Shown here: in pieces, positions 1 to 59,863 of the stretch
Layout: the number at the start of each line of letters is the position of its first letter
Numbering within the stretch: the stretch's first letter is position 1
Notes under the pieces: generated by a model
Database searches by the model: none
Seen by the model: the letters and a program-made list of their open reading frames with translations, nothing else
Told to the model about the DNA's origin: nothing
Translations under genes and position numbers: made by a program
Source of the DNA: a virus
Length of the DNA: 59,863 nt
Direction: 5' to 3' (one strand)
Virus record (IMG/VR): IMGVR_UViG_3300019477_000097

Positions 1-127
1 AATGCGCTGTAAGGCTCAAATTAAGCCAGTAAACGTGCATCTCTGTAACCACAATGTAAGGCGTTTGGTTTTTGGGCTGTTTGCCGTTGCTTTAAAGAGG
101 TTTGCAGTATAGGCGGATTTAAAATGT
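1..127. repeat. Terminal direct repeat, left copy (127 bp, identical to 59737..59863)
   Basis: Exact 127/127 identity between both window ends, read directly. The unit genome is therefore 59,736 bp. 127 is a common maximal assembler k-mer, so a circular-contig overlap is the simplest explanation. Confidence 0.9.
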
Positions 128-273
128 AATACTAGTTGTGATGTGTAGCTTTACATTAAATTTACATTTATAGGTAGGACAGGGTTGGTGATATGGTTTG
201 GTGATTTGGTAGGCGGTGTTAGTTGGAAGTAAAATTGAATTTAATACGCTTACCTACTTATTAAAAATTATAC

Positions 274-520
274 ATGCGAATGCGTTTGTATATGTATTAT
301 TTTTTTAATATTAATGTATTAATGAACAGCTACAGATTTAACAAAACTTTACAAAAAAACAGTATAAGCACCTTATCATTAATATATACTGTTCACAGCA
401 CCCCTTTTATTAAAAAAATAATAAAAATAAAAATTAATTATTATTCACTAATTAAAAACATATAAAAAACATATATTTATATATATCTATATAATATATA
501 TATTATTATTTATTACTTTA
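274..520. other. Extremely AT-rich tract (possible DNA-unwinding or curved region)
   Basis: Almost pure A/T with runs such as atatatttatatatatctatataatatatatattattatttatt (466-515). The only ORF here (274..465) translates to low-complexity I/N/K/Y sequence. Confidence 0.7.
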
Positions 521-522
521 TT

Positions 523-684
523 GGGGTATTAACTAGGGGTATTTTAACACATTAACATATTAACATTAAGCCCTCAACATAAACACTCCTTTTTACTAAT
601 TATTAAGTAAACGCAATTTTTTGGGTATTATTTGTTACCCCGACAAAAAATAATGCTTTTTGTAAATTGATTACCTGTTACCCC
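523..684. repeat. Five GGGGTAWT / GTTACCCC sites flanking the AT-rich tract (iteron-like)
   Basis: ggggtatt at 523 and 536, gggtatt at 623, and the reverse form gttacccc at 634 and 677. The 623/634 pair forms an inverted repeat. Confidence 0.6.
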
Positions 685-913
685 AATTTCTTAATGTAAC
701 TTGAGTTAGCATTACAAATTCGGTTATGCCATTTGCAAGTCAGTATGCCAAATGAGTTATTGGTCAGCGGTGATTGGTAGCTAGTGTAGTTAGGACTAGG
801 TCGGAAAGTTGGAACGGTTAAGGAAGCGTAAAAGTGGTTGTATGAGTCTAAGATGTAGGGTATAGTTTGGTTGTGGCAGGCGGTTAGCCTGTGGTTATAT
901 TAGGAGATAGGAA

Positions 914-1048
914 ATGGACTACGATGCATGGTTATTTACTGGTGAAAGAGACGAGGAAGAGGAAGCAGAAATTGAAGCAAGACGTAAGTTCTATGAGGAA
1001 CAACGTCAGGAACAAGAAGACGATAGGAACTATTGGGATTGGCAGTGA
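914..1048 (+). CDS. Possible small acidic protein (44 aa); not in the ORF track
   Basis: ATG at 914 is preceded by AGGAG (902-906, 7-nt spacer). Translation: MDYDAWLFTGERDEEEEAEIEARRKFYEEQRQEQEDDRNYWDWQ*. TGTGGTTATAT lies just upstream (890-900). The ORF is short, so support is weak. Confidence 0.3.
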   Translation: MDYDAWLFTGERDEEEEAEIEARRKFYEEQRQEQEDDRNYWDWQ

Positions 1049-1173
1049 GTGGGAGGACTCGGTCTTTGGACTGGGTAGTGGAGATTGGGTCTGCGGGCGA
1101 TGCCGATAGTGATGGTTGATGGCTTCCTTTGTGGTTATGACTGTTGATAGGTAGCGACGAGTTTCCGATTTGG

Positions 1174-1324
1174 TTCCGAAATCAGTTTTATTTGGTAGCG
1201 AACTGGTTCCGAATTGAATCGGAAATTTATTTTGACTGTTTGCTTCGGAACTGGAATCGGAAAGTGGTTCTGAAGAGGATTTCGGAATAGAAAGGAATGA
1301 TGTGATAGATATAGATGTTCGGAA
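1174..1324. repeat. Periodic TTCCGAA/TTCGGAA heptamer array
   Basis: Exact heptamers start at 1174, 1207, 1244, 1281 and 1318 (spacings 33, 37, 37, 37 bp). Related ATCGGAAA copies start at 1218 and 1256, and TTCCGAT at 1163. Confidence 0.8.
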
Positions 1325-2356: not shown

Positions 2357-2716
2357 ATGGCTGTTACATTAACTAAAACCGCAAAAACAACCCGTGCAAC
2401 CCGTGCAAAGGAGCAAAAAGCCGTAACCGAGCTTTTAAACGTGCCTAATGTTGCAAACCTTTTGCCCGCACCCGTTGAGCAACCTGCAAAACCGCAAAAA
2501 CAAGAGGCCAAAGTGCAAAACGGTATTAAAGCCCCAATGCGTGCCGGTAAATGTATGGCGGTTTGGCAAGCGTGCGAGGAGCTTTACAAAGCTACCGGCA
2601 AAGTACCTACACTTAAAGAGGTAATGGCAAGCGAGGCCATGCAAGGCGCAAACGCTACTAATACGCAAATTGAGTTTTACCGCTGGCGTAAATTTAACGG
2701 CTTAAACGTTAAATAA
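2357..2716 (+). CDS. Hypothetical protein; Lys/Ala/Thr-rich N-terminus plus C-terminal NGI[KR]xP...RWRKF domain (paralog of 42740..43429)
   Basis: AGGAG at 2344-2348, 8 nt before the ATG. By eye the C-terminal 65 aa align with the centre of the 229-aa Lys/Ala/Glu-rich protein. Confidence 0.75.
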   Translation: MAVTLTKTAKTTRATRAKEQKAVTELLNVPNVANLLPAPVEQPAKPQKQEAKVQNGIKAPMRAGKCMAVWQACEELYKATGKVPTLKEVMASEAMQGANATNTQIEFYRWRKFNGLNVK

Positions 2717-4052: not shown

Positions 4053-4076
4053 ACCAAACTCTTACTAATTGTGGTT

Positions 4077-4793
4077 ATGACAAAGAAAATTAGAATTTTA
4101 GCTTTATTTGACGATGGGAACGGCAGTGTAAAAAAGGCACTACCAGACCACGAGGTCGTATCAGTAGGAATCGGCAACGCCGATATTGTGATGGATTTGT
4201 CAGACCTGAAAAATATTAAAAAGCTGGTCGATATACACAAAAAAAATCCATTCGACCTGCTGATGGCAAGCCCACCGTGCGAATCTTGGAGCTTCGCAAC
4301 AGCAGTTCCAGGTGGGAACGCATATCGAGATAAAGAAACATTGCAACTTAGGACTTTTGAAAATTGGAAAACGCTCAATTACTCATCAATAAGTAAGTTA
4401 GTAAAGCGAAACGCGCCTGAACTTCATGACACCTATTTAAGATACCAGAAGTCTGGAATCAATGGCGATTTAACCGCACTATTTGTTTGCGAGATTGTGA
4501 AAGTTTTAGAAATTCCGTTCGTTATTGAAAACCCACAAACATCAATGCTGTTTGAAAGAATGAAGCGTAACGGTCTGGATTTCGTAAAGAGTAAGGCTTG
4601 TTATTCAGCGTACAGCGATGAGTTCCCACTTAAAAGAACGGGATTCGCGTCAAATGTGGAAATGAGACTGAAAAATGCGAATAAGGCTGCATTTCGAATG
4701 AAACAGATTAAAAACAATAGAAAAATTCTTCGGTCATCTATTCCCGCAGATTTGATTCGGGACATTATAAGTTATTTTAACTTTGGGTCATAA
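4077..4793 (+). CDS. Compact DNA (cytosine-5)-methyltransferase-like protein (238 aa)
   Basis: Motif IV ASPPCESWS (catalytic PC), motif VI FVIENP, and motif X-like SSIPADLIRDII are present. Motif I is degenerate (LFDDGNG). I chose the ATG at 4077 inside ORF 3987..4793. Confidence 0.65.
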   Translation: MTKKIRILALFDDGNGSVKKALPDHEVVSVGIGNADIVMDLSDLKNIKKLVDIHKKNPFDLLMASPPCESWSFATAVPGGNAYRDKETLQLRTFENWKTLNYSSISKLVKRNAPELHDTYLRYQKSGINGDLTALFVCEIVKVLEIPFVIENPQTSMLFERMKRNGLDFVKSKACYSAYSDEFPLKRTGFASNVEMRLKNANKAAFRMKQIKNNRKILRSSIPADLIRDIISYFNFGS

Positions 4794-5064: not shown

Positions 5065-5503
5065 TATTCGTGCCAAAGGACAGGCGGGCGAACGTGAAAT
5101 TTGTCAGTTGTTAGAAAACTTGACGTTGCCGATACTCGCTGCTTGTGGTTACAAAGCACCCCTGAAACCTTTGTTCCAACGTAACCAGAACCAGTCAGCT
5201 GTTGGTGGATCCGATATTACAAATCCGTTTGGGTTGTGTATCGAGGTCAAACGCCAAGAGACGCTTCAGGTTAACGCGTGGTGGAAGCAATGTGTTACGG
5301 CGTCCGAAGAGTTTGGCGGTGTTCCTATTGTGATGTATCGCCAGAACGGTAAGCGTAAGTGGAACTTCGTGATGGAAGCGTTTTTGCCTGTTACGCTTAT
5401 GAAGCAGGTTCTGCGACGCGTTACTGTGGACCAAGAAGATTTTGAAAGTTGGTTTAAATATTACATTGAGACTTGGATTAAAGATGGTAAATATGAAGAT
5501 TAA
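5054..5503 (+). CDS. Putative PD-(D/E)xK-type endonuclease / Holliday-junction resolvase-like protein (149 aa)
   Basis: GGAG RBS precedes the ATG at 5054. The pattern GxxGEREI...D(x)n..IEVK is typical of Hjc/VRR-NUC-like nucleases. Confidence 0.5.
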   Translation: MGINIRAKGQAGEREICQLLENLTLPILAACGYKAPLKPLFQRNQNQSAVGGSDITNPFGLCIEVKRQETLQVNAWWKQCVTASEEFGGVPIVMYRQNGKRKWNFVMEAFLPVTLMKQVLRRVTVDQEDFESWFKYYIETWIKDGKYED

Positions 5504-6274: not shown

Positions 6275-6805
6275 ATGTCCAAAATGTCGCAACGTTATTG
6301 GATCCGAAAGCAGAATGTCCTTTTAATTCGAGCGTTACGGGTTAGTTACGGACTTTCCGTAATTGTCCTGATGCTTGTCCACCTTAATATATCAGGAACT
6401 ATTATGCATCGTGTCTACGAGAATAGTTCCTGGCTTGGTAAAGGTCTGATATGCTTTTTGGCGGCTTCCACTATCCTTTTGGTTATGGATGTTTTTGTGG
6501 AAACTATGTGGAATACCTCAAAAGAGTGGGTTAAAAAACACTGCGAGGGTTGCCATATCCGGATGGCACATTTTGAGCGTCTGAATTTTGTTGTCCGTGC
6601 GTGGTGTGCTTTTGCCACAAGATACAGACATTGGTTCTACCTACCAACAACGTTCGGGTTTTTATTTATTATCCCTTTATCTACTCACTTGAACATTCCT
6701 AGCCCGCCGATTCTCAAGATATTCTACCTGTGGTTATTCCTATGGGGTATGGGTTGCGCGTTATTGGAAGGCGCAATTAACAATGGAAAACTGGAAAATG
6801 CTTAA
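6275..6805 (+). CDS. Multi-pass membrane protein (possible holin/antiholin or immunity protein)
   Basis: GGAG at 6265-6268 precedes the ATG at 6275. There are several hydrophobic segments, and it is the first gene of the lysis cassette. Confidence 0.55.
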   Translation: MSKMSQRYWIRKQNVLLIRALRVSYGLSVIVLMLVHLNISGTIMHRVYENSSWLGKGLICFLAASTILLVMDVFVETMWNTSKEWVKKHCEGCHIRMAHFERLNFVVRAWCAFATRYRHWFYLPTTFGFLFIIPLSTHLNIPSPPILKIFYLWLFLWGMGCALLEGAINNGKLENA

Positions 6806-7232
6806 ACGGAAAACGAAGTGGATTTTAACCACATTGATTTATTGTTCCCTTACCAGCATTGCTTTGGCAGAGGTAAGGGAATCATTTCACAACACTATAA
6901 AAACAGGAACAATGGGATGGGATATACTTTATTCGTGTCTCGCTGGCGCGGCAGGTGGATTAGTTCAAACTATTCGTAACTTGCAAAATCCGCACAAGTA
7001 TAGCAAGAATTTAGCTGTGGAACTGTGTGCAAATTTGCTGATATCGAGCTTTGCGGGTATAATGACATTCCTGTTCTTCGCTGGCACAACAATGTTCAAC
7101 ATCAGCCCTGTATTAATGATGTTCTTTGCCTGCTGTGCTGGTGTGTTAGGTTACGAAATTATCCGCAAATATACCGATAATTTCACAAAAACGGTGGATA
7201 AGTCAAATGATAACGAAACTCCTGACAAATAA
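6783..7232 (+). CDS. Putative holin (membrane protein, 149 aa)
   Basis: Three or more predicted TM segments and a charged C-terminus. It lies immediately upstream of the spanins and endolysin. The start is uncertain (6783 or 6798). Confidence 0.55.
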   Translation: MENWKMLKRKTKWILTTLIYCSLTSIALAEVRESFHNTIKTGTMGWDILYSCLAGAAGGLVQTIRNLQNPHKYSKNLAVELCANLLISSFAGIMTFLFFAGTTMFNISPVLMMFFACCAGVLGYEIIRKYTDNFTKTVDKSNDNETPDK

Positions 7233-7740
7233 ATTGACTGTTTATGCCCTCGCAGGTGTGGTTATAGCCACATTTGCGGGCATAACGGGCGGCTACCTTG
7301 TCAACAGGCACTGGCAAGGTAAGTGGAACGAAGAAATGTTGCGACAACAAAAGGAAATTGTTAAGCACAAGACCGAAGTTCGCAACATGGAACGTAAATC
7401 TGTCGAAGCTGTTGCCAAAATAGATGAAGAAAAAACTGCACAATTAAAGGAAGCCCGAGATGAAATTGACACTCTTCGCAGTAAGTTGTCTAATGGTACT
7501 ATCCGCTTGCGGTCATGTCCAACCGCCGCCGTGTCAGTGCGAACAACCGAAGTTAGCCCCCGTGCCAGCGTGGATAACCGACACGAAACCAAACAAGAAG
7601 ACGATTCAGAACGAGTTGGACAACATATTCTCAACATCGCCGAGCAAGCAAACATCGCAATAGGTCAGCGTGATGCTTGCGTTGCCATTTTAAAAGCTGA
7701 CCGTGAAATAGGAACTCAAGATGGAAAAACAAATCAGTGA
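7207..7740 (+). CDS. i-spanin (Rz-like)
   Basis: N-terminal TM segment (VYALAGVVIATFAGITGGYL) followed by a charged coiled-coil region. An embedded lipoprotein ORF lies in another frame. Confidence 0.75.
   Translation: MITKLLTNKLTVYALAGVVIATFAGITGGYLVNRHWQGKWNEEMLRQQKEIVKHKTEVRNMERKSVEAVAKIDEEKTAQLKEARDEIDTLRSKLSNGTIRLRSCPTAAVSVRTTEVSPRASVDNRHETKQEDDSERVGQHILNIAEQANIAIGQRDACVAILKADREIGTQDGKTNQ
7460..7663 (+). CDS. o-spanin (Rz1-like lipoprotein), embedded in the i-spanin gene
   Basis: Signal peptide with the lipobox LSAC (MKLTLFAVSCLMVLSAC) and a Pro-rich mature part. The ORF is fully embedded, out of frame, in 7207..7740. Confidence 0.7.
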   Translation: MKLTLFAVSCLMVLSACGHVQPPPCQCEQPKLAPVPAWITDTKPNKKTIQNELDNIFSTSPSKQTSQ

Positions 7741-8460: not shown

Positions 8461-8501
8461 TTGTGGTTATATAGGGGTTCAAAATTATTTGGAAGAATAA
8501 C

Positions 8502-8972
8502 ATGAACAAAGTAAATCCACTTGGTGTTCTGGATAAGGGCTTGTTAGCTCCTGAATTGAGCGAAGATGAAAAAGCTCTTCGTGACTTGTTCGTGCTTGAG
8601 TATGTTAAAGACTTCCATCCTGTTAACGCTTGCTTGAGAATGGGTTTGCAAGTTCCGTATGCGAACGACTGGGCTATCCGTTTTATGGAAGAGTCCTACG
8701 TCCAACAGCAAATCTCAAACGTAACAGGACGCAGACAGTTAACTGAAGAAGAGGTTAAAGCTAAGGACAAGGAACTTATTTTAACCACACTTCGCATTGC
8801 AATGCAGGACGGTCCACACGCATCGCGCGTATCTGCAGCAAAACAGATGGCAGCTATGCACGGCTTTGACCGTGCTGAAATTGAAGATGGTACTAAGGTA
8901 CTGATAGACGTGTTCAAGGACATTGCTGTCGGTATGGCACAACAGGATAGAAAAGATGGCAGTCAAAGTTGA
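8502..8972 (+). CDS. terS: Terminase small subunit
   Basis: The pattern FVLEYVKDFHPVNACLRMGL matches the small-terminase HTH pattern. It lies upstream of terL. Confidence 0.7.
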   Translation: MNKVNPLGVLDKGLLAPELSEDEKALRDLFVLEYVKDFHPVNACLRMGLQVPYANDWAIRFMEESYVQQQISNVTGRRQLTEEEVKAKDKELILTTLRIAMQDGPHASRVSAAKQMAAMHGFDRAEIEDGTKVLIDVFKDIAVGMAQQDRKDGSQS

Positions 8973-9528
8973 TACTTTGCCAAAACGATTGGCAGCAAGC
9001 ACGGTTTACGCGGCAGCGGATTACGGAATTGTGGTTACAAATGCCGCAAGTGACATCATTTTGAGCCTTTACGGGCAATACTATTATCGTATGTATGGGG
9101 ATTACTCTACCATACAAGAGATTCAGGCTGCAATGGCAGCCCGCAATTCGCTTGTACTTGTTGCAAATGGTGCAAACGGTGGCAATGCTGGGGCAGGGAG
9201 CGGCACAGGCGGCACACCCGCACCCGCTACACCCACACCAACACCAACGCCAAGCGGCGTAAATATAGGCGAGTTTTACGCCGAATATCACGAGGGTTAT
9301 ATTGATGTCAGCACTATCCAAAAAGAGAAAAACACTTATTTCTCTTTGGCTTTCCCTAAACCTTTTAGCAAAAAGCCCGATGTGTTTGAAATTACCGCAG
9401 AAACCACAGATAAAAGTAAGAAAATTGTCATCTACACGAGCGAGTTGACAAAAACTGGTTTCAAAGTTTCAACCAATTATCCGGAAGCTTTGCGCGGTAT
9501 TCTGTTCCGTGCTGGTGTTTTTAAATAA
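8956..9528 (+). CDS. Hypothetical two-domain protein between terS and terL (Gly/Thr/Pro linker; C-terminal H-type-lectin-like pattern)
   Basis: ATG at 8956 with an AGGA RBS. The linker is GGNAGAGSGTGGTPAPATPTPTPTPS. The C-terminal pattern FSLAFPKPFSKKPDVF...TKTGFKV resembles an H-lectin domain (weak, by eye). Confidence 0.55.
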   Translation: MAVKVDTLPKRLAASTVYAAADYGIVVTNAASDIILSLYGQYYYRMYGDYSTIQEIQAAMAARNSLVLVANGANGGNAGAGSGTGGTPAPATPTPTPTPSGVNIGEFYAEYHEGYIDVSTIQKEKNTYFSLAFPKPFSKKPDVFEITAETTDKSKKIVIYTSELTKTGFKVSTNYPEALRGILFRAGVFK

Positions 9529-14361: not shown

Positions 14362-14399
14362 TGTGGTTATAGAGGGTTTAACGACTTTCTATAACCACA
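14362..14399. repeat. Perfect 11-bp inverted repeat made of two octamer copies (TGTGGTTATAG ... CTATAACCACA)
   Basis: Arms at 14362-14372 and 14389-14399 with a 16-nt loop. It lies between the capsid stop (14353) and the next start (14412). Confidence 0.9.
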
Positions 14400-34607: not shown

Positions 34608-34654
34608 TTGTAGCTCCGTGCCGCGCGTATGCTTGGCGTTTGTGGTTAAAGTAA

Positions 34655-41904: not shown

Positions 41905-41909
41905 TGTGG

Positions 41910-44219: not shown

Positions 44220-44504
44220 CTAGGCGTTTTCAATTCCTAAAGGGCAGTATTCAAATTTTTCAATAAATTCGTTAATCGGGCGGACAAATGTGCAACCGCG
44301 CGGATTCAATTCTTTGTAGATAGCCATTGTGGTTAATGTATCCTCCTGGATTGCTTCACCGAGATATAAATACATACCGCCTTTGTAGTGCTTGTATGTC
44401 GAAAGAACTTTCAGCGGCGGCTTTTTGGTAATTTCTTCAATTACATCATGCAAGCTGTTGCGGTTGCCAAGATACAAAGGTTGGATAAATGTTGATTTAC
44501 TCAT
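44220..44504 (-). CDS. DUF1653-like small protein
   Basis: AAAGGA RBS before the ATG at 44504. The pattern YKHYKGGMYLYLGEAIQEDT...FVRPINEF is present. Confidence 0.6.
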   Translation of the reverse strand: MSKSTFIQPLYLGNRNSLHDVIEEITKKPPLKVLSTYKHYKGGMYLYLGEAIQEDTLTTMAIYKELNPRGCTFVRPINEFIEKFEYCPLGIENA

Positions 44505-49123: not shown

Positions 49124-49467
49124 TATTGTACTCCGCCTGCGGCGTTTAAAGCAACAACAAGCATATCAAAGTCCTCGTCCGGACCGAGAAGTTCTGCTGT
49201 TTGCTTAACGTGTTCGTAGTCCATGTCCAAGTCTTCCGCTAAACATTCCAAATACTCTTCGCGGTTTGAGTAGCCAGCTTCAATGTATTTGTTGTCGGTT
49301 GAGTCAATGTCCAAGTCCTCGCGGATACCCTCTGCACAAGACATAATTTGTGCCAAAAACCAGTCGAAAGACTCTGGACCGTAACCCGCATCTCCAGCGA
49401 GTTTGTTAATATAGTCGGCTGCTTCTCGCGCCTCAATATTGCTGTGGTTATTACAGATGACGTGCAT
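49123..49467 (-). CDS. Hypothetical very acidic protein (114 aa)
   Basis: Asp/Glu-rich throughout, with an AAGGAG RBS. Confidence 0.6.
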   Translation of the reverse strand: MHVICNNHSNIEAREAADYINKLAGDAGYGPESFDWFLAQIMSCAEGIREDLDIDSTDNKYIEAGYSNREEYLECLAEDLDMDYEHVKQTAELLGPDEDFDMLVVALNAAGGVQ

Positions 49468-49537: not shown

Positions 49538-50446
49538 TTACATATCTAATTTATCACGAAAACCAAGAAAGACTGGGAAACGCGGGGCTTCTTTTACACC
49601 AATGAGAAAGGATTTATATTTAACAATCTTTCCTACAAGTGTCCCCTCTTTGTGCATATCCCAAAGTTCTTGGCGTGTTATTGCATCAAAACCAGTTCCG
49701 ATTTTGAACGTGATACCTGTTGTGATATCTTTAACCACAAGTGCGCCAAGTGTATCACCGCCGACTTTACCGTCTTTATGGTCTGAGCGAACAGTATTGC
49801 CGAGTGCATCGAGTGTTGCTTCATTGTGGTTATGCAATAACTCTTCCGCTTCTACAATTTCAGCTTCTGAGTCTGCAAACCGTTTTAACTTCAACAAGTA
49901 TCCTTGTTTAACCGTAGAACGACCGTATTTGTACGGGGCGTCGGGTTTGCGAATCATCACGCCCTCAAAGCCTTCCGAAAGAACGCGCTCTTCAAACCAA
50001 AGAAGCTGTTCTTTGTTATGCACAATTTCATGCGGAAGAACACGGACGCGCCCTTTTGTTTGTTTGAAGCAACCTTTAACTTCCCAAGAGGATAAATGGT
50101 CGAATCGTAAGTGATACGGGACTTCCGGGTTAGTCCAATAATCAAATACGAAGTATGTAAAATCAGGTTCACCGTCCTGGGACATAACCCCGCTTGTAGT
50201 GTTCTGCATACAGTTTTTGTCCACTGGCGAACCAACAATTAATTCACCGTCCAAACCGTTTAACAGCGGAAACTTAGAAATCTCGCTTTGGATAAACTTA
50301 TTAGGAATTGGTTTTAGGCTTCGACTTAAAGCCTTTCCATCTTTTATAACCGCTCGAATACCGTCGAGCTTTGCACTTACTAGCACCGGATACTCCAATT
50401 TTTCCAGTTCTGCTTCCACTGCCAGCATTGGTTTTAAATCTGCCAT
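49538..50446 (-). CDS. ATP-dependent DNA ligase
   Basis: Motif I AKLDGIR (adenylated Lys), motif IV EGVMIRK and motif V LLKLK. Confidence 0.85.
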   Translation of the reverse strand: MADLKPMLAVEAELEKLEYPVLVSAKLDGIRAVIKDGKALSRSLKPIPNKFIQSEISKFPLLNGLDGELIVGSPVDKNCMQNTTSGVMSQDGEPDFTYFVFDYWTNPEVPYHLRFDHLSSWEVKGCFKQTKGRVRVLPHEIVHNKEQLLWFEERVLSEGFEGVMIRKPDAPYKYGRSTVKQGYLLKLKRFADSEAEIVEAEELLHNHNEATLDALGNTVRSDHKDGKVGGDTLGALVVKDITTGITFKIGTGFDAITRQELWDMHKEGTLVGKIVKYKSFLIGVKEAPRFPVFLGFRDKLDM

Positions 50447-50906
50447 TTTTAAGACCTTTCTTTTGTCTTGCCTGCTTTAACGCTGCTTTTGCAGCACTAT
50501 CACAATGAGCATTAGATTTACTTCTCGCATCCTCTAAATTGGAATGCCCTTTAACGTGTTTAAAACTAATCTCAAGGTTAAACTGGTTCTTCAGTAACCA
50601 CAAATATTCTATTGCTTGGTTCTCCTTTTCCTGTTTAGGAATACGTTCTCCTGTAAACGCGCTTATAGCCGGAATGCTATCTAATTGTACCAGTATAGAA
50701 TCGCCTTTGTGAATCAGGAAACATTTTATGCCGTTATAAATGGCGTCTGCAACGGCAAGCATTTCTGCTTCACACGCGCTGACAACGTCAAACGTATAAA
50801 ATCCACTTCCTGCTTTTCTACCCCGCCCGCTGGCTATCCAAAAACCATAGCCTGCGGAACGGGTGCGGCTGCAATAACTGGCATCAGTCATCACAGTAAT
50901 AAACAT
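50301..50906 (-). CDS. RNase H-like nuclease with a basic C-terminal extension overlapping the ligase gene
   Basis: DASY..., EAEMLAV, LDS and HVKGHSN...NAHCDSAAK match the RNase HI catalytic pattern. The ORF continues 146 nt past the ligase start. Confidence 0.7.
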   Translation of the reverse strand: MFITVMTDASYCSRTRSAGYGFWIASGRGRKAGSGFYTFDVVSACEAEMLAVADAIYNGIKCFLIHKGDSILVQLDSIPAISAFTGERIPKQEKENQAIEYLWLLKNQFNLEISFKHVKGHSNLEDARSKSNAHCDSAAKAALKQARQKKGLKNGRFKTNAGSGSRTGKIGVSGASKCKARRYSSGYKRWKGFKSKPKTNS

Positions 50907-51244
50907 TAAGAACCCTCGCCAAAAGCACGGTCAAGTTCTTCGTTCATTGCGACGTAGTATTGCGGATATTCCGTTGTGGTTACTTTACGCAAAACATCCG
51001 CAACAGCTTCTTCACCGAATCGAGGTGTCAAACGTTCCAAGCGGTCCACAAACTCGTCTTGACATTTAAACACGTCTTTCCAGTAGTCGCGTTCGCTTTC
51101 GGTAAGTTCATAAGCCTGCGCTTCTTCGTTCCATTTATGTTTTAAGGAACGGTCCATACCGTAAGCCATAGCTTCAGAAATATCTTTGTGTTGAGGACTT
51201 TTTGCGGTCAATTCTTCCACAATACCGTTAACAATCACTTTCAT
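50906..51244 (-). CDS. Hypothetical protein (112 aa)
   Basis: Coupled ORF in the leftward block. Confidence 0.6.
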   Translation of the reverse strand: MKVIVNGIVEELTAKSPQHKDISEAMAYGMDRSLKHKWNEEAQAYELTESERDYWKDVFKCQDEFVDRLERLTPRFGEEAVADVLRKVTTTEYPQYYVAMNEELDRAFGEGS

Positions 51245-51256: not shown

Positions 51257-51643
51257 CTATTGTTTAGTAAAGTTTTCAGCTTCCTTTTGAACGTCTCGCA
51301 AATACATATCGTTCAAAATTTTTGCTTCCGGGGTTAAATGCCATGACAGCATCATATTCAGCATGGCTCGTAACCGAGTTACGAAAATCTTGCTTTCTTC
51401 TAAGTTACCTTTCTCGTGCAAATGTTGGACATAGTCCTCAAGTGTGGTTAACTCGTTAGCAATGAGATAGTCTGGTGTACGCGCTAAAGCACCAAGCATA
51501 ACGGAAATACCTTGTGGATGGCTCATAACGAACTTTTCCAGTTGCCCCGCTTCAAGTTGTAAATCCAAAGCGGCAGCAACCTTTTTGTCCATCATTTCAG
51601 ATTTGACAAAGGATTCCAAGTCCTTTAATTCTTTAGCGTTCAC
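51257..51643 (-). CDS. Hypothetical protein (128 aa)
   Basis: ORF with an RBS region, in the leftward block. Confidence 0.6.
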   Translation of the reverse strand: MNAKELKDLESFVKSEMMDKKVAAALDLQLEAGQLEKFVMSHPQGISVMLGALARTPDYLIANELTTLEDYVQHLHEKGNLEESKIFVTRLRAMLNMMLSWHLTPEAKILNDMYLRDVQKEAENFTKQ

Positions 51644-52642: not shown

Positions 52643-52708
52643 TGTTTAAGTGTGGTTATAATAACCCGTAAACCAAACAGATGCAATGGTCCATATAGGT
52701 TTACGGGT
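52643..52708 (-). promoter_or_regulatory. Intergenic element: conserved 24-nt block with octamer, GGTTA-N3-TAACC palindrome and 11-bp stem-loop
   Basis: The block tgtttaagtgtggttataataacc (52643-52666) recurs at 55408-55431 with one mismatch. The stem is acccgtaaacc 52664-74 with ggtttacgggt 52698-708. A possible TTGCAT-17-TATTAT promoter lies on the minus strand (52686..52658). Confidence 0.5.
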
Positions 52709-52719: not shown

Positions 52720-53820
52720 TTAAATAAAACGGTCTAAATCTGGCTTGCTGTAATTCTCGCCTTTTTTGATTTTACCGTTTTCATCAAAGACTGGCGTACC
52801 GTTTTCGAACTTAGACCAGTTACTGCGGTTCACTTCGGAAAGAACACCGATTGGGTCGCCTGTCAGCTCGTACAGAACACCGATAGCTGTAACCACAGTA
52901 TCAGCCAAAGCGTCGACAACTTCACGTTTGCGCTCTTTATCGTTGAGGATTGCTTCCAAACATTCTTTAGAGAAAGATGTTTTTGTTTTCCAACTGTCAG
53001 CTTTAACTTCCAACAGGGAACCTACTGTGGATTTAACGTCCTGAATTGTGTCCGCTGCGTTTGCAAACTCGCCCATCTCTTCATAATGGCAACCAATTTG
53101 GACAAGCAGGTCGTCTTTGGTCGGGAACTCTTTGGCACGTCGGAACCACTCGGCAATATTTAAAGCAACGTCATTTTGGAAGCAGAAAGATTGAGTAACT
53201 TCTTCACCAATGTTACGGAACGTTATCGCTTTTTCTTCACCAAATTCTTTAAATGTTCCAACATCGAGTTCTTCAAACACGAAGCTGTGCATAAACAGAT
53301 TTCTGTTTTTATACTCTTTTACCAAGTTGGTTCCGATTTTTGCAAGTTCACTTATGGATAAACCCTCGTATTCAGGAAAGATTCGTACCAAGTATCCCGA
53401 CGCTAGGCATAAGTTTTTTAGCAAAATGGATTTTGCTAAAACGTCCGAACCTTTTGCCAGATAAGACTCAATAATAGAACGAGGAACCATTGGAAAATGA
53501 TATTTCGCTTCAACAGGATTGCTTTGTTCAATTTTACGTTTAATTTCGCGAACAATTTCACGTTCAACAGGATTAGTGTTGACAGTGTCATTAAGGCATT
53601 CAAAAACACCGCGCCAATTTGAGGACGTTACAAAATAAGAATACTTACCGTCATCATATTGTGTCATCGAGTTAACACATTGAGTTCGGTTTGTCAAACG
53701 ATACTCGTTAAAATCTGGTGCGTTTTTCAAAAACCCAATTTCACTTTCACTACCGATGACGGCAACTGTGGTTATTCGAGTGCCTTTAAAAATTGTATCT
53801 TTTTCAACAAGAACTTGCAT
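52720..53820 (-). CDS. Two-domain protein: N-terminal domain paralogous to 53839..54420, C-terminal MazG-like NTP pyrophosphohydrolase
   Basis: The C-terminal half has EEMGEF and EVVDALADTVV (MazG EExxE / ExxD pattern) and NRSNWSKF...GKIKKGENYSKPDL. The N-terminal half has PVEAKYHFPM, compared with PVERRFHLPF in the neighbouring gene. Confidence 0.6.
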   Translation of the reverse strand: MQVLVEKDTIFKGTRITTVAVIGSESEIGFLKNAPDFNEYRLTNRTQCVNSMTQYDDGKYSYFVTSSNWRGVFECLNDTVNTNPVEREIVREIKRKIEQSNPVEAKYHFPMVPRSIIESYLAKGSDVLAKSILLKNLCLASGYLVRIFPEYEGLSISELAKIGTNLVKEYKNRNLFMHSFVFEELDVGTFKEFGEEKAITFRNIGEEVTQSFCFQNDVALNIAEWFRRAKEFPTKDDLLVQIGCHYEEMGEFANAADTIQDVKSTVGSLLEVKADSWKTKTSFSKECLEAILNDKERKREVVDALADTVVTAIGVLYELTGDPIGVLSEVNRSNWSKFENGTPVFDENGKIKKGENYSKPDLDRFI

Positions 53821-53838: not shown

Positions 53839-54420
53839 TTAAAATTCCACAAGACCAGTTAGGATTTCAAGTCCTGTGTTAAAAAATTCGTGTTTGCAAA
53901 AACGGCAATGGTCGAGATATGACGCATTACCGTTTTTAATATCCATATCTACTTCCGCCCAAATGTCCTCAAATGCTGCACGATTATCGTAACCGCCGTG
54001 TTTCATGTAATAGCCGGAAATCTTTAATGCTTTTTTGATACGGTGCTTTTGAAGCCGCCATGCGAATACCGAAAACATCATTTTAGCCAGTTCGTCTGGA
54101 AAGAATGGTAAATGAAAACGGCGTTCCACAGGTTTATGATGACGCACCATCGCGAACATAACGTTCAGGATGCGGTCTACAATCGCTTCCTCTTCATCTG
54201 GTTTGTCCATAATGAGTGAGTCCAAGATTTCATCCGGCGTCATTGTTACGTTAAAAGAAGGATGACCCTCAACATCACGACCCGTTGTAACCACATGGTC
54301 ACGGTAAACGAGAAAGTTCCGTATAAACCCGATTTGCTCGGCAGGCATGGAAATGTTGAACGTAACAATACGGTCTAAACCAAACGTGGTATCCAATTCG
54401 ATTTTAACGGCGTGTTTCAT
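53839..54420 (-). CDS. Hypothetical protein (193 aa), paralog of the N-terminal half of 52720..53820
   Basis: AAAGG RBS before the ATG at 54420. It shares the PVE[RA][RK][FY]H[LF]P motif. Confidence 0.6.
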   Translation of the reverse strand: MKHAVKIELDTTFGLDRIVTFNISMPAEQIGFIRNFLVYRDHVVTTGRDVEGHPSFNVTMTPDEILDSLIMDKPDEEEAIVDRILNVMFAMVRHHKPVERRFHLPFFPDELAKMMFSVFAWRLQKHRIKKALKISGYYMKHGGYDNRAAFEDIWAEVDMDIKNGNASYLDHCRFCKHEFFNTGLEILTGLVEF

Positions 54421-55407: not shown

Positions 55408-55456
55408 TGTTTAAGTGTGGTTATAGTAACCTAGTTCTAAACAGATTACTATAACC
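55408..55456 (-). promoter_or_regulatory. Second copy of the conserved octamer-containing intergenic block plus 11-bp stem-loop
   Basis: The block tgtttaagtgtggttatagtaacc lies at 55408-55431. The stem is ggttatagtaa 55419-29 with ttactataacc 55446-56, with a 16-nt loop. Confidence 0.5.
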
Positions 55457-55725: not shown

Positions 55726-58128
55726 TCATAACCCACTAATAATATCAATGTTCAGTATCCGATAGCATTTACCGTAAAAACTGTAATTTTTAACAATGTC
55801 CACAGGCTTACATTCCATAATAAAGCCGTTAGCTATCAAACTTGCCAATGTTGCGTCCAATGCGGCATTACTACCTCTTGGATACTTAGCATAAGATGTA
55901 ATGCGAGACAATCTGCGGGACAAATAGCTACGCGGTATCACGCCGTCCACTTGCATCTGAGGTTTAATACCGTAACTATCCGGAAGCAACTCGCGGAGAT
56001 ACTCAACCATAATGGACAACATCTTACGCTCACGGCTATCATCGGACAAACCAATATCACCGTCCATAAGTTTTTGGCTCATGGTTCCGATGTCTCGTCT
56101 AACCACAGTAATAGCCCAGTCCAGATGTTCCTTAGTGATAATCGGCGTAATCCAGTTATCCGCAACGGCAAGCAAGGCGGAAAGTCGTGCAACCTTTAAC
56201 GCCGCACGGTTCCACATTTGTCGATAGCTTTCATCGTCCGTCTTGTTAATCTCGTTGTCGCATTCTAACTCGAACTTACTCAACATCTCCGCAGCTTCCG
56301 CGGTTTTATCCACAGGCTGTGAAGTTCTCATATTAAGTAAGTTTTGCGCTTGGAATGCGAGTTTAACCAGACCGTCTGTCAAAGCCTCGTCTGGAGATGT
56401 CAAAGTCTTGTTATTCATTGGTGGACGTTTACCGTCGTACTCAATAATAAGGAAACGGCTAAGGAAACCATCTTCCATCATGCTAGGTGTCAAGGACTGG
56501 TAGAAAGTATCAGGTGTCGTTTCGCCTATCATACTATAAGCAACACCACTAACGGACGCGATGTTGTTATCCTTATTCGAGTAACCGATACCACCAACAA
56601 CACTTTGCGGACCAGATTTTTGATACAAGTTCGTCATCTGTGTTCTAAGTGTGGTTAGCGGACCGTCTTTAAGGTCATCCGACAAGCGTTTGAGCTTACG
56701 ACCCCATTCACCGCTGACATTCACAAAACTAGGGTTCGCGGCAACAGCTTTCATTAACGCCGGACCGCTGGCATAGTCGGTAAAGTCAACAAAACTATGG
56801 AAAGTCGGCATCTTTTGGCTGGCAGCAGCAATTAAGGAAGAGATTCCCGAGTGCATGGCTTCCTTACCAATAGCACTTCGTGCGATAAGAACGATGTACA
56901 TATTGAGACCGGATTGTGGAATGTGCCACGCTTTACCACAGATACCCGCCAACAATCCTAAAGCTGACACAATAGCAACTTCTTTGACAGGGCGCGGTGC
57001 AGTTTGATAGATGTACTGTGCGATTCGCCCCGCAAACCCTGGACACCAACTCAATCCGACTTTACCGCTGCTTACAACTTCCGCGCTTACAGGGGCTGCA
57101 AGGCTCGCTACAACGGGGGCGGGGGTAGGGGCTGCTACAGGTGCGTTTTGCCCTACAACGTGCAAGGCAGGCTCAACACGGCTGGGCATTGGTGCGCCCT
57201 GTATGTTGGCAATGGCTTTAGCCGCTTTTTGCCGTATCGCCGCCGTAGCGTCAATGCTGGCAACCAGACAACTCAAATCCACCGCTTGTTCCGCAGCTTC
57301 GCGGCTGCGAATCATTTTCAGAGTTCGGTTCAGATACACATCGTTTTTAACAGCTTTTTCACGCTGTCCTAATGCACTAGAACGGAACAACCGACGGCAC
57401 TGTTCATTACTTGGAGAGTAGAACGTAAACATAGACATCAAAGCAACGTCTGCTTCTGACTGACTAGGATAACCTAGCTCATGCCAACGTCCTTCGTACA
57501 ACGCCAGGAACTTATCCTTGTTGTCTGCTTCCGCCGCCATTTGTAGGATATACCAATCGTCATCGACAGCTTCCAGTTCCTCAAGTTCGATTGCCGCGCC
57601 ACGAATAACGTCCATCTGACTCGCCATATTGCAAGCCATTTCATTCCGGTCTGCAATAGGCAAGTTCTCGACAACCCTACCTGTGGTTACAATAAAACGT
57701 TGACGAGAATATATCTCAACGTTACCGCGTTTACGACCTGCACCAACGTCTGCTCGAACCCAGATGTGCAAACCTTTACCGGATACACTGGATTCAGTAT
57801 AGCTGGCGTAAGTTTTCATCATTCTGTAGTACAAGTCGTAATCTTCTTGTGTCGTCCACAACTCCGGATGGTCTGGACAGTTCTCTGCGTCCTTAACATC
57901 CAAGTCAATACAAGTATAAGGGTCGTTTTCCGAAAGGATAAACCCAATGTTAAGACCACGACTATAAGCAGCTTGGCAAGCGTCTTCAAAACGCATCCAA
58001 GTGTTAGGCTCATTTACGGAAGCATAAGTCACCTTCCCGTTAACCACCGTGCAAGGTGCTTTATCTCCTCCGCAAATCGCCCATTGAGGACGTTCCCTCA
58101 ACTCCGCAGGAATTAAATTCCAACTCAT
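55726..58128 (-). CDS. Bifunctional primase-polymerase (prim-pol) fused to a helicase-like (DUF3987/D5-type) domain
   Basis: The N-terminus has CIDLDVKD and SGKGLHIWV, typical of prim-pol domains. The large C-terminal region has the P-loop-like segment ARSAIGKE. Confidence 0.7.
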   Translation of the reverse strand: MSWNLIPAELRERPQWAICGGDKAPCTVVNGKVTYASVNEPNTWMRFEDACQAAYSRGLNIGFILSENDPYTCIDLDVKDAENCPDHPELWTTQEDYDLYYRMMKTYASYTESSVSGKGLHIWVRADVGAGRKRGNVEIYSRQRFIVTTGRVVENLPIADRNEMACNMASQMDVIRGAAIELEELEAVDDDWYILQMAAEADNKDKFLALYEGRWHELGYPSQSEADVALMSMFTFYSPSNEQCRRLFRSSALGQREKAVKNDVYLNRTLKMIRSREAAEQAVDLSCLVASIDATAAIRQKAAKAIANIQGAPMPSRVEPALHVVGQNAPVAAPTPAPVVASLAAPVSAEVVSSGKVGLSWCPGFAGRIAQYIYQTAPRPVKEVAIVSALGLLAGICGKAWHIPQSGLNMYIVLIARSAIGKEAMHSGISSLIAAASQKMPTFHSFVDFTDYASGPALMKAVAANPSFVNVSGEWGRKLKRLSDDLKDGPLTTLRTQMTNLYQKSGPQSVVGGIGYSNKDNNIASVSGVAYSMIGETTPDTFYQSLTPSMMEDGFLSRFLIIEYDGKRPPMNNKTLTSPDEALTDGLVKLAFQAQNLLNMRTSQPVDKTAEAAEMLSKFELECDNEINKTDDESYRQMWNRAALKVARLSALLAVADNWITPIITKEHLDWAITVVRRDIGTMSQKLMDGDIGLSDDSRERKMLSIMVEYLRELLPDSYGIKPQMQVDGVIPRSYLSRRLSRITSYAKYPRGSNAALDATLASLIANGFIMECKPVDIVKNYSFYGKCYRILNIDIISGL

Positions 58129-58129
58129 A

Positions 58130-58912
58130 TTATTCACCCAAGTCAATTATCTTTTGTGTACGGTATTTGTCCCGTAAATACTCAATGTCAGCGTCAAGCT
58201 GTGCAATGATTTTCTTCTTCTCCGCAAGTTTAGCCTTGTACTCTTTAAAATACAAGTCATGCAACATAACTTCACCGTTACGTCTACGCTTCTGGTTCTC
58301 GTTATAGCGGATATATTTAATTAACCGTTCTTCTTCCTTAAAGTTCACCTTATCCACACCAGCTTTGACAAACTCTTGGAAAGATGTACCCACAGCTAAG
58401 GCTCGAGGACGGCTTAACAAGTATTGCAACGACAGCGTGAAGTTCCCGTTTTTAAGATGTGATGGTGAGCATTTCGCCCGCAAGTCCATATACTCGGTAA
58501 AGTCCTCTTCCGCAATCCATAATTCCGGCTCGGTTAATTCCAGTTCTTTCCCAAAAATACGATGGTAGTCGGTCAAGTACGCTTGAACCATTTCGTATTC
58601 CAGTTCCGAAGCAGCCAACTTATCCAAGTAAGCCAAGTTCCGCATCAGCATTAACGGCGATTCCGCTTTAGGGATTACCAAACGTCCACGCGCCGCCCGC
58701 AAGCCGTCTAATTTACTTTGCAGGTAGTGAACCGTCATTTTCTCAATGTCCACCATCACAGCGTCTTTTTTAAGTGTAGAGATAGTTTCCATAATATCTG
58801 CAACCGCAGTCGGAAACTCTCGAATCAACGCCTGCATTAAAATATCTTCCTCTAACTTAACAGAAGTCTCGTGTTCCACATTATCTGTGGTTAAAACTTT
58901 AACATCTTCCAT
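58130..58912 (-). CDS. Hypothetical protein (260 aa)
   Basis: I chose the ATG at 58912 inside ORF 58130..58978. Confidence 0.6.
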   Translation of the reverse strand: MEDVKVLTTDNVEHETSVKLEEDILMQALIREFPTAVADIMETISTLKKDAVMVDIEKMTVHYLQSKLDGLRAARGRLVIPKAESPLMLMRNLAYLDKLAASELEYEMVQAYLTDYHRIFGKELELTEPELWIAEEDFTEYMDLRAKCSPSHLKNGNFTLSLQYLLSRPRALAVGTSFQEFVKAGVDKVNFKEEERLIKYIRYNENQKRRRNGEVMLHDLYFKEYKAKLAEKKKIIAQLDADIEYLRDKYRTQKIIDLGE

Positions 58913-59213
58913 TTTTAAATACCTTATCTGTTGAGTTATCCCATGAAATAACCATACCACAGCCGATGTAACAAACACCGCTGTCGAAAGTTACCTTATA
59001 ACCTGCTTCGCGCAACTTCTGCACAACTTTGTAAGCGTCGGACTCTTTGTCCAACGAATCTTCACCATACAACCATAAATTATAAGGTGTAGAAGTAATT
59101 TTAACAGAAGTTAATCCGCTTTGAGCAGAGATTTTAATACACTTCTCAATATATTCCATATGCGTATCGTAAGTTCTAACCGATAAGCTACGAGCTTCTT
59201 CCGCGGTTATCAT
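58899..59213 (-). CDS. Hypothetical protein (104 aa)
   Basis: Coupled ORF. Confidence 0.6.
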   Translation of the reverse strand: MITAEEARSLSVRTYDTHMEYIEKCIKISAQSGLTSVKITSTPYNLWLYGEDSLDKESDAYKVVQKLREAGYKVTFDSGVCYIGCGMVISWDNSTDKVFKNGRC

Positions 59214-59612
59214 TTAAATATCTCCAAGTGATACAGCATTTAAGACTTTCGCGTGTTGTCTCGCGTCTTCAAGGTTTAAGTGAACTAAACCATGCTCAAG
59301 CAATTTCATTTCCCAACCCAATCCTTGCCATTTAGCTTGGTAATCATAGAAGCCATGTTCCTGTGAGTATGTAATGTAATGATAGCTTGTTCCAACGGTC
59401 AGCGGTTCCGTTTCCCCTTTAATGAATTCGTGTTTACCGACAGTAATAACCACAGTTGCGCGTCGATATTCGCCAACGTCCCAAAGTGGGTGGTCTTCGC
59501 ATTGCACCCATTCGCCGTCAATCTTATGTTGCCAACGTGTCCAAGGTTTGTCTGTAAGCATAGCGTCCATTGCATACAGTTGCATAAGTTTCGCGTGTTT
59601 ATAAGATGGCAT
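59214..59612 (-). CDS. Hypothetical protein (132 aa), first gene of the leftward block
   Basis: AAGGAG RBS before the ATG at 59612. Confidence 0.65.
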   Translation of the reverse strand: MPSYKHAKLMQLYAMDAMLTDKPWTRWQHKIDGEWVQCEDHPLWDVGEYRRATVVITVGKHEFIKGETEPLTVGTSYHYITYSQEHGFYDYQAKWQGLGWEMKLLEHGLVHLNLEDARQHAKVLNAVSLGDI

Positions 59613-59688
59613 AGTAGCTCCTTTAGTAAGTGTAACTGTGAACAGTTTTAAATAAGATTAAACAGCAACGGCTCAAATTCGCCCGCCA

Positions 59689-59720
59689 AGCCACTTTTAG
59701 GGCTTGCCCTATACTTACCC
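59689..59720 (+). promoter_or_regulatory. Repeated promoter-like box AGCCACT-N9-GCCCTATACTTACCC (+ strand), pointing across the genome junction
   Basis: agccacttttagggcttgccctatacttaccc. A near copy lies on the minus strand at 34655..34677, and a related GCCCTATAATACC lies at 4043..4055. Confidence 0.35.
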
Positions 59721-59736
59721 CTTACCCGTGCCTTTG

Positions 59737-59863
59737 AATGCGCTGTAAGGCTCAAATTAAGCCAGTAAACGTGCATCTCTGTAACCACAATGTAAGGCGT
59801 TTGGTTTTTGGGCTGTTTGCCGTTGCTTTAAAGAGGTTTGCAGTATAGGCGGATTTAAAATGT
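59737..59863. repeat. Terminal direct repeat, right copy (identical to 1..127)
   Basis: Exact identity with 1..127. Confidence 0.9.

Follow-up and report, generated by a model that had tools for sequence, protein, structure and literature searches.

The viral genome recorded in IMG/VR as IMGVR_UViG_3300019477_000097, a stretch of 59,863 nucleotides that we call the window, carries the octamer TGTGGTTA 79 times, with 48 copies on the + strand and 31 on the - strand (Table 1). We find that this array is a real, strongly selected, lineage-wide signal. By analogy with NrS-1 PrimPol, its copies are probably dispersed template recognition sites of the phage's own primase-polymerase/helicase, an 806-aa protein encoded in the leftward gene block.

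Abundance, spacing and selection of the octamer

Bases 1-127 of the window recur exactly at its end, so the site at 59782 is a duplicate of that at 46 and the unique genome of 59,736 bp holds 78 copies. A preliminary description of this DNA had also arrived at 78; all of the coordinates listed there were right, but one - strand copy (24153-24160) had been overlooked. Dinucleotide shuffles of the window yielded 2.7 copies on average with a maximum of 8. Markov models, which the preliminary description had proposed as a null, predict 2.7-3.9 copies at orders 1-3. Orders 4-5 are uninformative because the octamer itself generates its sub-words and thereby inflates the expectation. The other proposed null, synonymous codon shuffling, was run within 73 genes derived from open reading frames (ORFs); it gave a mean of 16.8 copies and a maximum of 24 against the 79 seen, and these counts include 12 intergenic copies, which the shuffling left untouched. 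This rules out codon or amino-acid usage as the cause of the excess. The enrichment is real and is no by-product of protein coding.

The word is kept exactly. The next commonest 8-mers in the window all overlap it, each of its 24 one-mismatch variants occurs only 0-10 times, and its edges are sharp, with weak information outside the eight bases. GTGGTTA occurs 85 times and, as stated earlier, only 6 of these lack the 5′ T. Within genes, five of the six combinations of frame and orientation are used (sense frames 0, 1 and 2 with 4, 11 and 23 copies; antisense frames 1 and 2 with 21 and 8), which bears out the multi-frame reading reported before. The earlier description of the copy placed between the queE and queC ORFs (41910-42665 and 41134-41904; Table 1) is also correct.

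Conservation in relatives, a further check that had been suggested, gave the same picture. Three metagenomic relatives (L004-L006), whose primase is 95-96% identical to that of the window and whose nucleotide divergence is 13-15%, keep 83-90% of the window octamers intact versus about 30% expected. Divergence is 3.1% inside the octamer versus 9.8% in the flanking 12 nt on either side (Fisher P = 1e-7, with the three relatives not independent of one another). In a more distant locus (L007, about 30% diverged in alignable DNA) none of the 3 alignable window sites is conserved and the word density equals that of the window, with 24 copies in 18.4 kb; single sites therefore turn over while the supply is kept. 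Together, the codon shuffle and the divergence of octamer and flanks show that the copies are under purifying selection at the DNA level, and the earlier claim that selection acts on the DNA word rather than on the protein stands.

A single one-mismatch variant, TGTGGTAA, is slightly raised in the window (10 copies versus about 3-5 expected at low Markov orders), and the partial loci L004-L006 hold 3-5 copies of it apiece. These copies could be decaying or nascent sites.

The copies are dispersed and spaced more evenly than chance allows, with a mean gap of 766 bp for both strands pooled. On the + strand the coefficient of variation (CV) of the gaps is 0.55, and no random placement was equally even (4,000-5,000 placements per test); on the - strand it is 0.69 (P = 0.02). 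The longest + strand gap is 3,016 bp, and the orientation of successive copies alternates beyond chance (runs test P = 0.004). About 60% of the copies lie on the + strand along the entire genome. We looked along the window for a switch in orientation that would mark an origin or terminus and found none, the bias being uniform. The + orientation is dominant in both transcription blocks (about 26:13 and 22:18), consistent with the earlier observation that polarity follows the genome and not transcription.

Word families of related phages and the genes that accompany them

No match to GenBank phages was obtained by megablast with 20 kb of the window, and relatives were found through protein searches. 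Among described phages, those nearest to the window phage are the Nipunavirus members NP1, PaMx25 and DoCa3 (Queuovirinae), whose primase is 62% identical to that of the window. We ranked all 8-mers in each genome by their excess over an order-3 Markov model. For six of the phages 50 kb of sequence was examined. Of these, NP1 and DoCa3 (58-59% GC) carry 34 and 33 copies of TGTGGTCA (1.3 expected) together with 9 and 7 of TGTGGTTA. The E. coli phages slur01 (Seuratvirus) and JenP1 (Nonagvirus) have 37 copies of TGTGGTTA and 27 of TGTGGTCA plus 20 of TGTGGTTA, respectively; the Stenotrophomonas phage Salva (Beaumontvirinae) has 31 of TGTGGTCA, and the Vibrio phage VpKK5 has 19 of TGTGGCCA and 18 of TGTGGTCA. 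In 43 kb of sequence each, the Pseudomonas phage 73 (Septimatrevirus) and the E. coli phage Halfdan (Lokivirus) carry 19 and 20 copies of TGTGGGCA (0.3 and 0.2 expected). Across 29 IMG/VR loci encoding primase homologues of 35-96% identity, TGTGGTTA or TGTGGTCA ranks at the top in 22, or in 24 when words offset by one base are included.

Other words stand out in two of the genomes. An IMG/VR locus of 69% GC (L026) carries 11 copies of CGTGGTCA (2.0 expected) versus 4 of TGTGGTCA, possibly a form of the word that begins with C in this very GC-rich relative. Salmonella phage 9NA (L036) has no enriched TGTGG word; it shows a modest dispersed excess of CCCGTGG and GCCCGTG (25 and 20 versus 5.8 and 4.2) and has tandem-repeat clusters at 3185-3422 and 40363-40543.

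The phages that share this word family infect E. coli, Pseudomonas, Xanthomonas, Stenotrophomonas and Vibrio, and the variants of the word are specific to each phage lineage. A 50-kb sample of E. coli K-12 contains a single copy each of TGTGGTTA and TGTGGTCA, as compared to 14 of Chi. The word is thus a trait of phage lineages and not of hosts, and a host word is excluded; these tests cover the hosts of the relatives. A DNA uptake sequence (DUS/USS) was likewise rejected, given the lack of excess in the E. coli sample and the presence of the word in phages whose hosts have no uptake sequences.

Even spacing is found in most of the group. Over nine genomes, 14 of 18 per-strand tests gave P<0.05, with CVs of 0.17-0.69; the - strand of Salva and both strands of phage 73 fell short of this level. 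The lowest CVs are those of Halfdan (0.17), VpKK5 (0.24-0.31) and JenP1 (0.32-0.37). In every genome tested the majority orientation corresponds to the coding strand of the structural genes. In most lineages more information resides in the 5′ flank, the side of the expected primer start, than in the 3′ flank, and several lineages have A at -2 in 52-84% of their sites; beyond this tendency we found no flank preference common to the lineages. Both the even per-strand spacing and the lineage-wide reach of the word are additions to the preliminary description. The most regular array is that on the - strand of Halfdan (L034), where 12 copies of TGTGGGCA are separated by gaps of 2.7-4.5 kb. As a phage of E. 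coli K-12, Halfdan offers a handy experimental system.

Which gene tracks the word was read from a local tblastn table of gene presence and absence. In this table, every phage with a full-length homologue of the 806-aa primase (29-62% identity) also has the word; word and primase coincide in 8 of 8 genomes of named phages and in nearly all of the 29 loci from metagenomes. A dispersed TGTGG word also occurs in phage 73, Halfdan and Salva, all three of which are devoid of DpdA and que genes, so that the word must be read by something other than the 7-deazaguanine system. VpKK5 keeps the word with a DNA polymerase that has no similarity to that of the window. In Moraxella phage Mcat18, which encodes the Cas4-like nuclease (47% identity), the SF2 helicase, DUF669 and Sak4 but no primase, polymerase or clamp, not a single 8-mer is enriched. 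Presence of the word is thus shown to be independent of DpdA, of the type of DNA polymerase and of the recombination module. What is left after this comparison is the primase, the clamp and a small ORF before the primase gene. Sliding clamps are not sequence-specific. The products of 2357..2716, 42740..43429 and 43528..44202 had been put forward as possible binders; none of them tracks the word.

The 806-aa protein combines an archaeo-eukaryotic primase (AEP) domain, a helix-bundle domain and an SF3 helicase (Table 1). It matches PHROG 3022, annotated as 'DNA primase' (785 bits), and, by phmmer, the SaPI5 primase-helicase 7OLA (7e-12) and the N300 fragment of NrS-1 (2e-7). A profile of its clade built without NrS-1 matches NrS-1 N300 with E = 2e-31 over residues 10-251, spanning the AEP and helix-bundle domains. 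The Pfam family PF22763 matches residues 229-277 with 26.3 bits, below its cut-off of 27.9. Catalytic residues are conserved (D81/D83 and S120/S122, within DxD, SxSGxGxH and other motifs), as is a tyrosine of the helix bundle, Y261 in NrS-1 and Y271 here; near R249/K251 the alignment is ambiguous.

Candidate readers of the word

NrS-1 PrimPol stands out among PrimPols in that it depends on an 8-nt site in the template (PMC7102993). Its defining laboratory reports this site as 5′-TTTGGTTA-3′. Primers made on the template 5′-T15-G-TTTGGTTA-3′ begin with pppC opposite the nucleotide that adjoins the site on its 5′ side; T14-TT-GTGG-TT (T19) is used with higher efficiency, and priming is better on TTGTGGTT (PMC8718748 and its supplement). 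The window word differs from TTTGGTTA by one mismatch, and T14-TT-GTGG-TT holds TGTGGTT, that is, 7 of the 8 bases of TGTGGTTA. Directly 3′ of its primase gene, NrS-1 has an origin-like region (L001 17062-17445), a probable replication origin, with 11 AAAGTGTAACC iterons in both orientations. The region also holds TGTGGTCA (17360) and TGTGGTTA (17438 on the + strand and 17210 on the - strand), the same two words that are dispersed in the relatives of the window phage. We count TTTGGTTA once in the NrS-1 genome, at odds with the two copies claimed at its centre (PMC7102993).

The likeness to NrS-1 thus extends over a homologous enzyme (AEP, helix-bundle and SF3 helicase domains) and an asymmetric site, read on a single strand, that has the primer start directly on its 5′ side; the NrS-1 site has also been described as GTGG/GTGA, and GTGG is contained in the window word. 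The differences are that the NrS-1 words lie in one origin-like cluster by the primase gene, whereas the window has 78 copies spread evenly over both strands, and that NrS-1 PrimPol is itself the replicative polymerase, whereas the window phage has a separate DNA polymerase and clamp. The same domain combination occurs in ORF904 of pRN1, whose helix-bundle domain recognises a template GTG, as cited in PMC8718748 and PMC7102993. This GTG core also lies inside the window word; unlike the octamer, a 3-nt motif needs no maintenance in a genome. No enrichment or spacing phenomenon is known for the pRN1 motif. Primases of the DnaG type read 5′-GTC-3′ (T7 gp4) or 5′-CTG-3′ (E. coli DnaG). With these the window would share the proposed function, in which a cryptic word in the template, lying 3′ of the primer start, determines the starting points of Okazaki fragments. 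The DnaG-type enzymes, however, are unrelated Zn-finger/TOPRIM proteins, and any trinucleotide turns up by chance within a few dozen bases, so that selected, spaced arrays of them are not a feature of genomes. In the P4 alpha and SaPI Rep systems, short words are bound by a primase-helicase of the same broad superfamily; those words are tandem repeats clustered at one origin, whereas the window word is dispersed. By mechanism, the word most likely belongs with the NrS-1/pRN1 type of primase recognition site. What sets it apart from the sites described so far is that it is long, that it has dozens of selected and evenly spaced copies on both strands, and that it is conserved across phage subfamilies.

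A primase or replication signal had been one of four hypotheses in the preliminary description, and it is the one we favour, in view of the co-occurrence with the primase, the profile match and the NrS-1 biochemistry. From that biochemistry we infer that the 806-aa protein reads the word and primes beside it. The strand carrying 5′-TGTGGTTA-3′ would become single-stranded at the fork and be bound at the word by the helix-bundle domain; the AEP domain would then start a primer opposite the base or bases directly 5′ of it (positions -1 and -2), and the phage DNA polymerase and clamp would extend this primer. An 8-nt word arises by chance only once per about 20-30 kb per strand, so the genome would have to carry its own supply, and selection would keep one word per about 1.2 kb on the + strand and about 2 kb on the - strand with no long gaps. 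The array would fix where synthesis of the discontinuous (Okazaki-type) or restart kind can begin. Rightward forks, which are co-directional with transcription of the structural genes, would use the words on the + strand; leftward forks, or restarts, would use those on the - strand.

Several points weigh against priming by this protein. The uniform orientation of about 60:40 with no switch point is a poor fit to a single bidirectional origin. SF3 helicases travel on the leading-strand template, making access of a fused primase to the lagging-strand template problematic. NrS-1, Listeria phage B025 and Salmonella phage 9NA encode distantly related primases and have clustered iterons only, with no dispersed word. 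Identity between the 806-aa protein and the N-terminal region of NrS-1 PrimPol is only about 26-28%. The specificity of NrS-1 PrimPol was later described as flexible, with GTG being sufficient (PMC8718748), and this leaves the exactness of all eight bases in the window unexplained. In addition, the NrS-1 oligo in PMC7102993 does not contain TTTGGTTA. Lastly, presence and absence across genomes do not tell the primase apart from the clamp or from the small upstream ORF.

This last point leads to another conserved phage DNA-binding protein as the reader, such as the product of the small upstream ORF or a nucleoid or architectural protein, in which case the array would organise, mark or compact the DNA. 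An exact, dispersed and evenly spaced word is what one expects of a protein-binding array, and the small ORF precedes the primase gene in several relatives and is annotated as helix-turn-helix or DNA-binding in phage 73. We nevertheless regard this as unlikely. NrS-1 PrimPol alone recognises a near-identical word in vitro, no candidate binding protein was identified in the window, where the ORF upstream of the primase has no family match, and an architectural protein that binds duplex DNA does not require even spacing on each strand. Dispersed binding sites of this general kind are known from cluster A mycobacteriophages such as L5, whose stoperators are 13-14-bp repressor sites scattered through the genome. 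Stoperators resemble the word in being dozens of asymmetric sites, both genic and intergenic, in a phage genome. They differ in that their orientation follows transcription and that they serve the repressor of temperate phages, whereas the window word ignores transcription.

A Chi-like signal is very unlikely. Such a signal would tame host RecBCD/AddAB, or the phage's own SF2 helicase and Cas4-like exonuclease, acting as a protection or recombination switch. Like Chi (E. coli GCTGGTGG and its equivalents, which are over-represented 5-8-mers read on one strand by a translocating enzyme), the word is an asymmetric and strand-biased 8-mer present about once per kb, and the genes for a phage helicase and a Cas4/RecB-like nuclease are adjacent. 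Chi is specific to the host species, however, whereas one word family is shared by phages of five unrelated host genera and is therefore no host Chi, and the word is unlike the E. coli Chi that abounds in the K-12 sample. A signal for the phage nuclease and helicase is argued against by Mcat18, which has both genes, SSB and Sak4 and yet no enriched word. Furthermore, the bias is merely 60:40 and does not reverse toward the genome ends.

Still less probable is a target of site-specific modification or nicking, as in 7-deazaguanine insertion by DpdA or in T5-like nicks sealed by ligase. The phage does encode DpdA, FolE, QueD, QueC, QueE and an ATP-dependent ligase, and the word has three G on one strand and zero on the other. 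This link to the deazaguanine genes fails in the relatives, since the word persists in the three phages without DpdA and que genes, two of which (phage 73 and Halfdan) also have no annotated ligase. The only DpdA of the window's subfamily with a mapped target, that of Iggy, acts at the dinucleotide GA (PMC10484667), which is absent from both strands of TGTGGTTA, and a modification target gives no reason for enrichment or even spacing. Least probable of all is the reading as a degenerate DnaA box (TAACCACA versus TTATCCACA) through which host DnaA would be recruited or titrated, a resemblance pointed out in the preliminary description. CCACA is common to all word variants and to the box, and a universal DnaA could explain conservation across hosts. 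The window, however, has just 3 copies of the true box core TGTGGATA/TATCCACA versus 79 of the word, and the A needed to complete the 9-mer box is found after no more than 23 of the 78 copies. Further from the box still lie the variants TGACCACA, TGGCCACA and TGCCCACA, and relative to TTWTNCACA the word has A where the box needs T4.

Genome context and implications

The leftward block encodes FolE, QueD, QueC, QueE and a DpdA-like transglycosylase; a DNA polymerase, a clamp, a DUF669 single-strand-binding protein (SSB) and a Sak4-like ATPase; and the ATP-dependent ligase along with the 806-aa primase. No repressor or integrase was matched among the ORFs of this block, which was the part scanned against Pfam and PHROGs. 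The exact repeat at the window's ends stems either from overlap in a circular assembly or from a short repeat at the genome termini. We searched the window for iterons clustered as at an origin and found no such cluster, only repeats within coding sequence and some short direct repeats.

Some copies of the word have a distinctive setting. Two intergenic copies (52644-52666 and 55409-55431) share the longer context GTTTAAG-TGTGGTTA-TA(A/G)TAACC and may be special sites, for example an origin or a promoter; the place of the second relative to the primase gene matches that of the origin-like iterons in NrS-1. TA follows the word directly in 6 of 12 non-genic copies versus 4 of 67 genic copies. 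As single-stranded DNA, the inverted word pair after the major-capsid ORF folds with -11.1 kcal/mol (z -4.3); it is not followed by a T-run and is therefore no classical terminator. At 8444-8472, upstream of ORF 8502-8972, the sequence TTGACA-N14-TGG-TTATAT, in which the word copy at 8462 provides TGG and the start of the -10 element, resembles an extended -10 sigma-70 promoter, and a consensus scan made no call there.

The ORF at 42740-43429 on the - strand (229 aa) contains 9/18-nt tandem repeats (GCAGCTTTxGC...) and encodes a repetitive protein rich in Lys, Ala and Glu; it matches only PHROGs of unknown function, and we found nothing that connects it with the word. QueC of the window (41134-41904, - strand) is a stand-alone protein of 256 aa, while NP1 (L002 32225-33625) and JenP1 (L038 31104-32519) encode an amidotransferase-QueC fusion of about 470 aa. 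The window phage may thus end at another 7-deazaguanine derivative, and the annotation suggests that its product may be of the preQ0 type rather than the archaeosine type. An AT-rich, non-coding segment (185-503) has an (AT)n run, a 26-nt imperfect inverted repeat (285-310 / 408-433) and short direct repeats, and exact 18-nt repeats AGGGCTTTCGGCGTTTTT lie at 1785 and 1851 (region 1785-1868).

Table 1. Coordinates of the octamer copies, found by exact search of the whole window on both strands, and of other features
Feature	Position	Strand	Remark
TGTGGTTA copy	46..53	-	
TGTGGTTA copy	890..897	+	
TGTGGTTA copy	1130..1137	+	
TGTGGTTA copy	4070..4077	+	
TGTGGTTA copy	5144..5151	+	
TGTGGTTA copy	6729..6736	+	
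TGTGGTTA copy	6826..6833	-	
TGTGGTTA copy	7257..7264	+	
TGTGGTTA copy	8462..8469	+	
TGTGGTTA copy	8782..8789	-	
TGTGGTTA copy	9030..9037	+	
TGTGGTTA copy	10940..10947	+	
TGTGGTTA copy	12202..12209	-	
TGTGGTTA copy	12916..12923	+	
TGTGGTTA copy	14362..14369	+	
TGTGGTTA copy	14392..14399	-	
TGTGGTTA copy	15182..15189	+	
TGTGGTTA copy	17104..17111	+	
TGTGGTTA copy	18201..18208	+	
TGTGGTTA copy	18808..18815	+	
TGTGGTTA copy	19264..19271	-	
TGTGGTTA copy	20004..20011	+	
TGTGGTTA copy	21504..21511	-	
TGTGGTTA copy	22720..22727	+	
TGTGGTTA copy	23502..23509	+	
TGTGGTTA copy	24153..24160	-	Overlooked earlier
TGTGGTTA copy	24476..24483	+	
TGTGGTTA copy	25530..25537	+	
TGTGGTTA copy	26064..26071	-	
TGTGGTTA copy	26252..26259	+	
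TGTGGTTA copy	27739..27746	+	
TGTGGTTA copy	27822..27829	-	
TGTGGTTA copy	28479..28486	-	
TGTGGTTA copy	29298..29305	-	
TGTGGTTA copy	29542..29549	+	
TGTGGTTA copy	30887..30894	+	
TGTGGTTA copy	30964..30971	-	
TGTGGTTA copy	31505..31512	+	
TGTGGTTA copy	32672..32679	+	
TGTGGTTA copy	34641..34648	+	
TGTGGTTA copy	34916..34923	-	
TGTGGTTA copy	35088..35095	-	
TGTGGTTA copy	35263..35270	+	
TGTGGTTA copy	35519..35526	+	
TGTGGTTA copy	35812..35819	-	
TGTGGTTA copy	37115..37122	-	
TGTGGTTA copy	37393..37400	+	
TGTGGTTA copy	38779..38786	-	
TGTGGTTA copy	39999..40006	+	
TGTGGTTA copy	40272..40279	-	
TGTGGTTA copy	41286..41293	+	
TGTGGTTA copy	41905..41912	+	Complement gives QueE stop codon and spacer before QueC start
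TGTGGTTA copy	42413..42420	-	
TGTGGTTA copy	43636..43643	+	
TGTGGTTA copy	43979..43986	-	
TGTGGTTA copy	44328..44335	+	
TGTGGTTA copy	44834..44841	-	
TGTGGTTA copy	45301..45308	+	
TGTGGTTA copy	45685..45692	+	
TGTGGTTA copy	46427..46434	+	
TGTGGTTA copy	46491..46498	-	
TGTGGTTA copy	47076..47083	-	
TGTGGTTA copy	49443..49450	+	
TGTGGTTA copy	49732..49739	-	
TGTGGTTA copy	49825..49832	+	
TGTGGTTA copy	50595..50602	-	
TGTGGTTA copy	50975..50982	+	
TGTGGTTA copy	51443..51450	+	
TGTGGTTA copy	52651..52658	+	Context GTTTAAG-word-TA(A/G)TAACC
TGTGGTTA copy	52890..52897	-	
TGTGGTTA copy	53767..53774	+	
TGTGGTTA copy	54288..54295	-	
TGTGGTTA copy	55416..55423	+	Context GTTTAAG-word-TA(A/G)TAACC; about 300 bp past primase gene 3′ end
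TGTGGTTA copy	56100..56107	-	
TGTGGTTA copy	56650..56657	+	
TGTGGTTA copy	57682..57689	+	
TGTGGTTA copy	58886..58893	+	
TGTGGTTA copy	59447..59454	-	
TGTGGTTA copy	59782..59789	-	Terminal-overlap duplicate of 46-53
Inverted word pair, perfect inverted repeat TGTGGTTATAGA...TCTATAACCACA	14362..14399		Between major-capsid ORF (13322-14353) and next ORF
Exact 127-bp repeat	1..127 = 59737-59863		Terminal overlap or terminal repeat
SF2 helicase and adjacent Cas4-like exonuclease	44515-47156		Leftward block
806-aa AEP primase-polymerase with helix-bundle domain and D5/DUF3987 SF3 helicase	55726..58146	-	Proposed word reader

Primase recognition sites are normally 3-nt words that come free in any genome, so the starts of lagging-strand fragments are treated as essentially stochastic. 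It is quite possible, and we suggest tentatively, that a large group of tailed phages (Queuovirinae, Beaumontvirinae, Septimatrevirus and Lokivirus, including well-studied E. coli phages) has replaced the ubiquitous primase triplet by an 8-nt word that is evenly spaced, co-evolves with the helix-bundle domain, and acts as both a priming map and a replication 'self' barcode. The word could be such a barcode because the phage primase would prime efficiently only on phage DNA, the host offering about one site per 50 kb. Our literature searches found no prior description of an evenly spaced octamer priming map; text searches for the word returned only unrelated contexts (RUNX sites, primer lists), and two papers on Queuovirinae make no mention of it, although such absence is no proof of novelty.

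If this reading is true, these phages depend on a selected 8-nt word, and their fragment starts are genetically fixed and readable from sequence. The choice of priming sites, the control of Okazaki-fragment length and the co-evolution of primase and template would become testable in E. coli phages of the genera Seuratvirus and Nonagvirus. In metagenomes, TGTGG-N-Y-A in evenly spaced copies, about 60% of them on the coding strand of the structural genes, would be a signature of this replication module, and the copies of the word would be sites to preserve when such phages are recoded or engineered. The array would also suggest a route by which a phage replisome can tell its own DNA from that of the host.

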